Shown here: positions 28,932 through 29,115 of the stretch, one piece after another
How the letters are laid out: the number at the start of each line of letters is the position of its first letter
How positions within the stretch are numbered: position 1 is the stretch's first letter
Assembly: GCA_903918885.1 (NCBI GenBank)
Contig: CAIXFY010000027.1
Location: forward strand, 76,542 to 140,541
From: an uncultured Verrucomicrobia subdivision 3 bacterium
GTDB lineage: Bacteria > Verrucomicrobiota > Verrucomicrobiia > Limisphaerales > UBA11358
DNA length: 64,000 bases
Reading direction: 5' to 3'
The notes under the pieces: generated by a model
What the model was told of the DNA's origin: nothing
The model's database searches: none
The model's input: only the letters and a program-made list of their open reading frames with translations
Translations under genes and position numbers: made by a program

Positions 28932-29115
28932 CATCAAGTTAATAAACCCCGCATCAACGCAGGGTTTCTTGGGACGATGGACGGCCACTGTCAGTGGATT
29001 TGTCAGTATTGCGGCGGGTTGAATCACAATTCGCCACTATTCTGCCACTACGCCACTGAAACCCGCCCACAACTCCTAAACGGGTTGCGACCAATCTCGT
29101 GCATGATTCAGACCT

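Follow-up and report, generated by a model that had tools for sequence, protein, structure and literature searches.

Paired 12-nt-period repeats as probable integrase arm-type sites at the ends of a genomic island in Limisphaerales

Outside Gammaproteobacteria, mycobacteriophage L5 and phage mv4, arm-binding systems have seldom been characterised (bioRxiv 10.1101/2023.11.06.565760). In mv4, a phage of Lactobacillus delbrueckii, the 215-bp attP contains two pairs of adjacent 11-bp direct-repeat arm sites, one per arm, and binding to these sites has been shown for the mv4 integrase, a heterobivalent enzyme of the Tn916 type with an N-terminal arm-binding domain (bioRxiv 10.1101/2023.11.06.565760). 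The arm-binding domain of the Tn916 and lambda integrases is made of three strands plus one helix, and enzymes of the IntCTnDOT type have their first catalytic arginine (Arg I) placed elsewhere (PMC8138268). The KplE1 prophage of E. coli (IntS/TorI) has its int gene beside attL, where integrase binding autoregulates int (PMC2951348).

Here, we describe a locus of this general kind in an uncultured Limisphaerales bacterium, the assembly of which comprises 85 contigs (2.46 Mb). The analysed window is the whole 64,000-nt stretch C27:76542-140541, and coordinates given without a contig name refer to it. The window contains a 9.3-kb island (28918-38230) with TGTCAGT repeats near both ends, which we propose to be arm-type binding sites of the island's own heterobivalent tyrosine integrase, a reading to which we give a probability of about 80% on the strength of comparative sequence analysis. 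That we are dealing with a real feature of a known kind, in a new integrase family, is unusually well supported, since more than a hundred related islands could be compared.

Two ends of one island and its integration target

The island is bounded by a 12-nt direct repeat, TGTGTTTCATCT, the left copy of which (28918-28929, + strand; attL core and crossover region) is identical to the right copy (38219-38230, + strand; attR core), found 14 nt ahead of the gcvP stop codon. Within these borders, CACTGTCAGTG occurs at 28986-28996 and 38093-38103 on the same strand, each time with a second GTCAGT exactly 12 nt on from the first (29002-29007 and 38109-38114, also on one strand), and this combination lies inward of the direct repeats, by 59 nt on the left and by 104 nt on the right. 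When at most one mismatch is allowed, GTCAGT-N6-GTCAGT has two matches in the window, where shuffled sequences would lead one to expect 0.13. Five TGTCAG-N6-TGTCAG sites are present in the 2.46-Mb genome (zero for the reversed control), and four of them lie at the ends of two islands, this one and a paralogous island of the same contig, the fifth (C20:4840) looking like a chance occurrence. The preliminary description of this DNA had reported the pair at 28986 and 38093, with identical spacing and orientation, and had taken it as a link between both ends of one element that does not depend on the flanking hairpins. Both claims are borne out. Neither outcome that would have refuted the link is seen: genome-wide counting finds the motif rare rather than frequent, and comparison of the ends of related islands finds it present there rather than absent.

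The repeats can be broken down into four putative sites, all on the + strand. On the left, P'1 (28984-28995) reads GCCACTGTCAGT, with TGTCAGT at 28989-28995, and P'2 (29001-29007) is a TGTCAGT 12 nt further on, a period shared by most of the loci examined, whatever their motif. On the right, P1 (38094-38102) reads ACTGTCAGT, and P2 (38108-38114) is again TGTCAGT, 12 nt past P1. What may be a weaker third arm unit, GGTAGTGAAAAA, follows 20 nt past P2 (38128-38139, + strand); the same 12-then-20 spacing, together with (T)AGTG(A/G)AAAA, is found in the second island and in most right arms. The palindrome that had first drawn attention is incidental: what is conserved is a tandem repeat of 12 nt with a fixed direction, and the repeat units of Tyr-type subfamilies (named after a residue of their integrases, see below) are non-palindromic.

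The second island of this genome (C27:56226-59844, 3.6 kb, about 17 kb upstream of the window start, its right end covered by locus L001) has the same design. Its integrase (at C27:56439) is 77% identical to the window integrase, its direct repeat is 17 nt long (CCGTGTCCATCTGTGGC), and its TGTCAG-N6-TGTCAG sites lie at C27:56297 and C27:59705, as CACTGTCAGCAAAAATGTCAGT upstream of int and as ACTGTCAGTTAAACTGTCAGT 104 nt inside the right repeat, a motif-to-repeat distance equal to that in the window island. Beside the integrase, a 108-aa neighbour is 72% identical to a 121-aa protein of the window island. This second island also encodes a 273-aa protein and a sigma-factor-like ORF, and is adjoined by a 358-aa ORF that we take, by eye, to resemble recF.

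Joining the two flanks of the window island and querying them against 100 related genomes revealed an uninterrupted site, ATCTGTGTTTCATCTGTGTGAATCTGTGGCT, downstream of gcvP in two of them (G024 and G079), which indicates that the insertion lies in the tail of a AGCCACAGA / TCTGTGGCT repeat family and that these repeats are the target rather than a part of the element. The end motifs had been described as unrelated to the AGCCACAGA hairpins, and this holds, the hairpins being the integration target. In the window, the target is made up of short 10-11-nt units, (C)ATC(T/C)GTGT(N)(N), repeated in tandem and with ATCTGTGGCT at the end (28871-28929 and 38231-38246), which are also seen in relatives (L060 at 1500-1535, and L061), often within a AGCCACAGA...TCTGTGGCT hairpin, TCTGTGGCT occurring 44 times in the genome. 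Such repeats are the insertion sites for close relatives of the integrase, and tRNA 3' ends for more distant ones. An attB present in multiple copies could permit many insertion sites.

Just inside the left core lies an inverted repeat, AAACCC-N12-GGGTTT (28944-28967, + strand), with a variable loop and with stems conserved over 44 left arms (at least 95% in most columns). As a stable structure this core-adjacent hairpin was rejected, its predicted fold being weak (-10.4 kcal/mol, z = -1.3), and an Rfam scan of 28500-38600 returned no meaningful match, the single hit being a snoRNA family at E = 0.34, below the gathering score. Just inside the right arm, a 203-aa ORF (37461-38072, + strand), which is probably a shorter gene of 120 aa starting from the Met at 37710, has no family match in Pfam, NCBIfam or PHROGs. 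Its C-terminal ...WNQRRGVWQHPCGSFDPLGSHPTDPRSKYRCYFPADVLPA is kept at the same position in five islands (L038, L039, L042, L044 and L048), and in other islands this position is taken by an unrelated gene ending in ...DDPQPAITVMMPDED.

Repeats and companion motifs across related islands

Relatives of the window integrase are present in 88 of the 101 Verrucomicrobiota (Limisphaerales) genomes sampled, in which CTGTCAG-N7-GTCAGT has 145 matches, against three for its reversed control. At least 11 same-strand motif pairs lie on one contig, 2.2-26 kb apart, with an integrase beside one member. About 25 integrases of 75-88% identity have the pattern GGCCACTGTCAG(C/T)-N5-TG(T/C)CAGT upstream of them, at 115-140 nt from the start codon, and so do integrases of 47-58% identity that adjoin tRNA 3' ends. 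Since the same motif accompanies these tRNA-inserted integrases, and since cargo varies widely, the motif appears to go with the integrase and not with the target or the cargo. Upon alignment of 44 distinct left arms, no other non-coding block was as conserved as GGCCACTGTCAG, which belongs to P'1 in the window and in which every column is at least 95% conserved; nearly all loci of the TGTCAG class have it ahead of int. An alignment of 17 right arms extends from ACTGTCAGTGAAA(C/G)TGTCAGT (at least 90% conserved), through further conserved blocks, to the core, so that both the architecture of the right arm and its distance to the core are conserved among relatives. The number of arm sites is variable, with two to five copies of the 12-nt unit in right arms: five tandem copies of GTGTCAGTGAAA are seen in L037 (on G079:C66), and three copies in L045, in L036 and in the TGCCAGAA-type right arms of G102 and G103.

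The repeat itself is not a single sequence. Among 190 integrase loci examined for upstream repeats, nearly every one has a tandem repeat with a period of 12, 112-175 nt upstream of int, the unit of which depends on the subfamily: TGTCAG(T/C), (A)GTGCCAG(T/C), TGCCAGAAGAA, GCTCCAGCAAAA, GTGAGGGGGAAA, GTGTAGTGAA, AACGGACACCAA, AGTTTCAGTGAA, GTGCCAGTGAAA and further variants, which amount to at least 10 classes. In four genomes, variant motifs are present at both island ends and nowhere else. GTGAGGGGGAAAGTGAGGGG occurs exactly twice in the 4.3-Mb genome G068, 49 kb apart on one strand; TGCCAGAA pairs are found solely as island ends in G102, G103 and G104; and there is a GTGCCAG pair in G108. In the islands of G068, G102, G103 and G108, the tRNA 3' end is duplicated as a 23-25-nt direct repeat, and the distal motif copy is found about 85-190 nt inward of it. 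At one locus of G108 (L233, G108:C49:36150-36600, minus strand), the right-end tRNA repeat of a GTGCCAG-type island is directly followed by CACTGCCAGTGAAACTGCCAGT, which is the left arm of a further island whose unit differs slightly, a layout suggesting that one tRNA gene harbours islands in tandem. In metagenome-assembled genomes of Limisphaerales and related Verrucomicrobiota, integrative islands and their attP are delimited by two 12-nt-period repeats on the same strand, a landmark that works even where the target is a REP-like repeat and not a tRNA gene.

It is this distribution that refutes the idea that the repeats are iterons forming an origin for the Rep protein of the island, or that the two ends are alike by chance. 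Short tandem direct repeats are indeed typical of iterons, but Rep homologues are encoded in only 13 of 110 loci, the second island has the motif on both arms with none of its ORFs corresponding to the Rep of the window, and chance is excluded by the genome-wide counts and the reversed controls, which leaves this explanation with a very slim likelihood.

A second motif accompanies the first, which had been noticed as AATTCGCCAC at both ends. Both copies are there (29028-29037 and 38080-38089, with another at 36562 and 16 occurrences genome-wide), but only the left one stands as part of a conserved feature. It falls within a partly conserved block, ACAATTCGCCA, of the 44 left arms, which in the window forms a second P'-arm motif block (29026-29057, + strand) where ACAATTCGCCAC is followed by GCCACT repeats at 29033, 29044 and 29052; in close relatives, GCCACTA is repeated with a period of 11. 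The right-end copy (38080-38089, + strand) is probably non-functional and was rejected as a conserved site, since it is not kept in the 17 right arms, L048 alone having something similar (AACTTCGGCAC). What these arms have instead is an inverted form, GTGGCG(A/C)GTT, which in the window corresponds to an inverted TCGCCAC counterpart at about 38140-38152 (+ strand; TTGTGGCGCGTTA / TTGTGGCGCGTT), part of a TAGTGGCGAGTT-like block of right arms that the TGCCAGAA-type island of G103 shares. Orientation is strict, TCGCCA being found in 26 of the 44 left arms and never inverted, and TGGCG(A/C)G in eight of the 17 right arms and never in the direct form. On the P arm, this second motif is located between the TGTCAG sites and the core, and on the P' arm beyond them, on the int side. 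Because it stays constant where the first motif changes, it would suit a conserved accessory factor, either the 121-aa protein or a host bending protein, which is a lead and not a result, and it is a better candidate than TGTCAG for an excisionase (recombination directionality factor, RDF) site.

The third copy of the palindrome, GACTGCCAGTG at 32307-32317, has a different status. Although the sequence is present as described, it is not part of the end motif. It is contained in a promoter-like site, TTGACT-16-(TG)TAAAGT (32305-32332, + strand), correctly placed for the + strand XRE gene (ATG at 32342), and it coincides with the -35 box. A search for the XRE switch in the 100 related genomes returned one partial homologue (L055 in G053, XRE 50% identical), which reads TTGACTGTCGGGAC at the corresponding position and lacks ACTGNCAGT, and ACTG[TC]CAGT occurs 38 times in this genome. 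As a member of the motif family this copy was consequently rejected and, from these sequence comparisons, we conclude that it owes its resemblance to the -35 hexamer. Downstream of the 125-aa XRE gene, a 165-aa ORF (32725-33222, + strand) has weak similarity (22%, E = 4e-6) with a 169-aa protein of L055 (1719-2228). The latter, possibly a metalloprotease, has an HELCH motif, and the window copy is without HExxH at the aligned position; this suggests a pairing of XRE with a diverged ImmA/IrrE-like protease.

These findings bear directly on the view that an XRE regulator recognises the palindrome ACTG-N-CAGT at the ends and in the switch, thereby coupling a lysogeny-type switch to recombination. 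In its favour are the related 11-mer in the XRE intergenic spacer and the palindromic nature of ACTGTCAGT. However, XRE homologues are encoded in none of the 109 other integrase loci, nearly all of which have a 12-nt-period repeat upstream of int, be it TGTCAG or a variant of their subfamily, which excludes these regulators as readers of the ends; the homologous switch in L055 is without the palindrome, the third copy overlaps a -35 box, and the units of other subfamilies are non-palindromic. This coupling is thus highly improbable, and the recombination sites and the XRE switch are better seen as separate modules, which corrects the earlier reading of the island.

The integrase as the probable reader of the repeats

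The tyrosine integrase is encoded immediately inside the left arm (29122-30141, + strand), in a 341-aa ORF that opens at 29116 (MHM...) and has its conserved start, MKTK, at 29122. It matches Pfam Phage_integrase (PF00589, E = 2.3e-10) and PHROG 1 integrase (E = 5.6e-18), and HxxR...H...Y is invariant in 39 homologues. Box I of this family (29692-29715) reads (W)ETGAAQSD and has no Arg at the TGxR position of Arg I. G193, Q196, D198 and R163 are invariant in the same 39 homologues, which makes R163 a candidate substitute for Arg I. These integrases are probably active, to judge from many fresh-looking insertions, from direct repeats that are intact and from empty sites found in relatives; perhaps an arginine placed elsewhere, as in IntCTnDOT, stands in for Arg I.

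In an AlphaFold model built from the 39 homologues (pLDDT 85), the N-terminus of the integrase folds into strands 5-10, 13-18 and 24-29 and a helix at 32-47 (pLDDT 83-96), and the same three strands and helix are obtained when the domain is modelled alone. The N-terminal domain is therefore predicted to have the topology of an arm-binding domain. The best fold matches in the PDB are full-length lambda Int structures (1z1g, 1z1b and 5j0n), with 354-364 aligned columns covering the N-terminus, against about 280 for constructs without the N-domain; Tn1549, XerA and P2 integrases are matched as well. When the domain was searched alone, lambda Int came at rank 10 (TM 0.51, rmsd 1.6 Å over 41 columns), which is not significant (E = 1.3). 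At the sequence level, all Pfam matches of the N-domain are sub-threshold, DUF6538 being hit in 37 of the 39 homologues (best E = 5.9e-5) and Arm-DNA-bind_1 in two (clan CL0081), and its comparison with PDB sequences gave irrelevant matches alone.

The most specific evidence comes from asking which alignment column best predicts motif class, TGCCAG/TGCCAG versus the TGTCAG-containing classes. Position 8 of the integrase (MKTKFTLF; F10 of the 341-aa ORF) is the sole perfect two-state column, with 70 Phe and 17 Tyr in the first set (87 of 87, no exception) and, in the 80 held-out loci, 37 Tyr/TGCCAG and 10 Phe/TGTCAG, again with no exception. In total, 115 distinct proteins are either Phe/TGTCAG or Tyr/TGCCAG without exception, including the integrases on C73 and C29 of the same genome, which have Tyr with GTGCCAG. 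A striking contrast is that L157 (FYLF) has TGTCAGAAGAA and L107-L110 (FYLY) have TGCCAGAAGAA. Cys, Ile or Trp at position 8 go with quite different motifs. In trees built without the N-domain, class changes four to six times, and all independent Phe/Tyr pairs point in the same direction (sign test p = 0.25 for the three that are well supported, too few to give the test power, and p = 0.03 for the six found on all branches). Thirteen Phe-type left arms have TGCCAG as second site, so that Phe tolerates C there.

Position 8 falls in strand 1 of the model where, by the alternation of beta-strand side chains, it is predicted to face the same side as the invariant R10 and the variable position 6; by analogy with lambda and Tn916, this face may enter the major groove. 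A recognition code in strand 1, with Phe8 specifying T and Tyr8 specifying C at the third base of TG(T/C)CAG, is an attractive proposal that we hold tentatively, its chances being slightly below even. Such a code would allow co-resident islands to keep separate arm specificities, and this genome has two Phe/TGTCAG and two Tyr/TGCCAG integrases. If it were true, arm specificity could become predictable, and one substitution could suffice to re-set it. More generally, the natural variation described here (more than 10 motif classes, and Phe/Tyr versus T/C) offers a testable specificity determinant of arm-binding domains.

The main competitor for reading the repeats is the 121-aa protein, the gene of which (30248-30613, - strand) is convergent with int and which, as a candidate excisionase or RDF, could coat the tandem repeats on both arms. 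It is a natural suspect, being encoded in 79 of 110 integrase loci, about 80% of loci of at least 6 kb and both islands of this genome, and the column N29/G, its best two-state predictor, agrees with motif class 60 times out of 63. Excisionases such as lambda Xis bind tandem direct repeats, and Tn916 Xis binds near both transposon ends. Nevertheless, no column of the 121-aa protein predicts motif class perfectly, as column 8 of the integrase does; both arms of the 2.2-kb island of G061 have the motif, and no ORF of at least 70 aa in this island resembles the 121-aa protein; and this protein has no excisionase or helix-turn-helix family match in Pfam or NCBIfam, and no informative match in PHROGs. 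Excisionase sites, to which a small DNA-bending protein of the element binds, are usually on one arm, between arm-type sites and core, and the TGTCAG motif is on both arms, at their outer ends. A conserved accessory factor is also better served by the second motif (TAGTGGCGAGTT / TCGCCAC), which is constant where the first one differs. We consequently regard binding of the repeats by the 121-aa protein as unlikely, though a good deal less so than the XRE and iteron explanations.

Everything considered, the N-terminal domain of the integrase is the best candidate reader, since no protein column other than one of its residues follows the motif without exception. Cargo is highly variable, and only the integrase is universal among the 110 loci. 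The preliminary suggestion that one island protein recognises both the ends and the switch survives in its first half, with the integrase as the best candidate for the ends; its second half is unsupported, the third copy coinciding with a -35 box and the one homologous switch being without the motif. According to the mechanism that we envisage, the excised circle would have an attP of about 216 bp made of the P arm, the core TGTGTTTCATCT and the P' arm directly upstream of int, with P1-P2 (and perhaps the weaker third site) 104-126 nt from the core, P'1-P'2 59-78 nt from the core, and all arm sites in the same orientation, 12 nt apart within a pair. The N-terminal domain (three beta-strands plus a helix) would bind the arm sites, with F10 (position 8) in its first strand reading the third base of the hexamer (Phe with T, Tyr with C), and the crossover site would be left to the core-binding and catalytic domains, the integrase thus bridging arm and core, presumably by physical binding to both, to form integration and excision complexes. 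The 121-aa protein and the second motif (TCGCCAC / GTGGCG) might play a role in bending and directionality. In keeping with this scheme, the motif pairs are distant from the 12-nt core and unlike it in sequence, and the same layout is seen in the second island and in the 17 right and 44 left arms.

Comparison with characterised integration systems

The closest parallel is mv4, since in both systems each arm has, near its outer end, two adjacent sites in direct repeat, and the attP is of nearly the same length (about 216 bp here and about 215 bp in mv4). They differ in that the putative sites described here have a unit period of 12 nt, as opposed to the 11-bp sites of mv4; in the integrase, which belongs here to another family, found in Verrucomicrobiota and without the canonical Arg I; and in the targets, which are here a REP-like repeat for the window island or tRNA 3' ends for its relatives. 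The likeness to bacteriophage lambda lies in the three-domain integrase, which can be structurally aligned over its full length, in arm sites that are present on both arms and away from the core, and in an int gene beside attL with a small accessory gene adjacent to it. However, sequence identity with lambda Int is about 17-20%, lambda has five sites (P1, P2 and P'1-P'3) instead of the four, perhaps five, found here, and the sequence, spacing and orientation of the sites are different.

As in KplE1, int lies directly beside attL, so that arm sites overlap the region upstream of int. The P' arm sites are located here 115-133 nt upstream of the int start codon, a position which, by analogy, raises the possibility that int is autoregulated via its arm sites. 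Taken together, the layout matches the general scheme of mv4 and lambda, in an uncharacterised integrase family whose targets include both REP-like repeats and tRNA genes.
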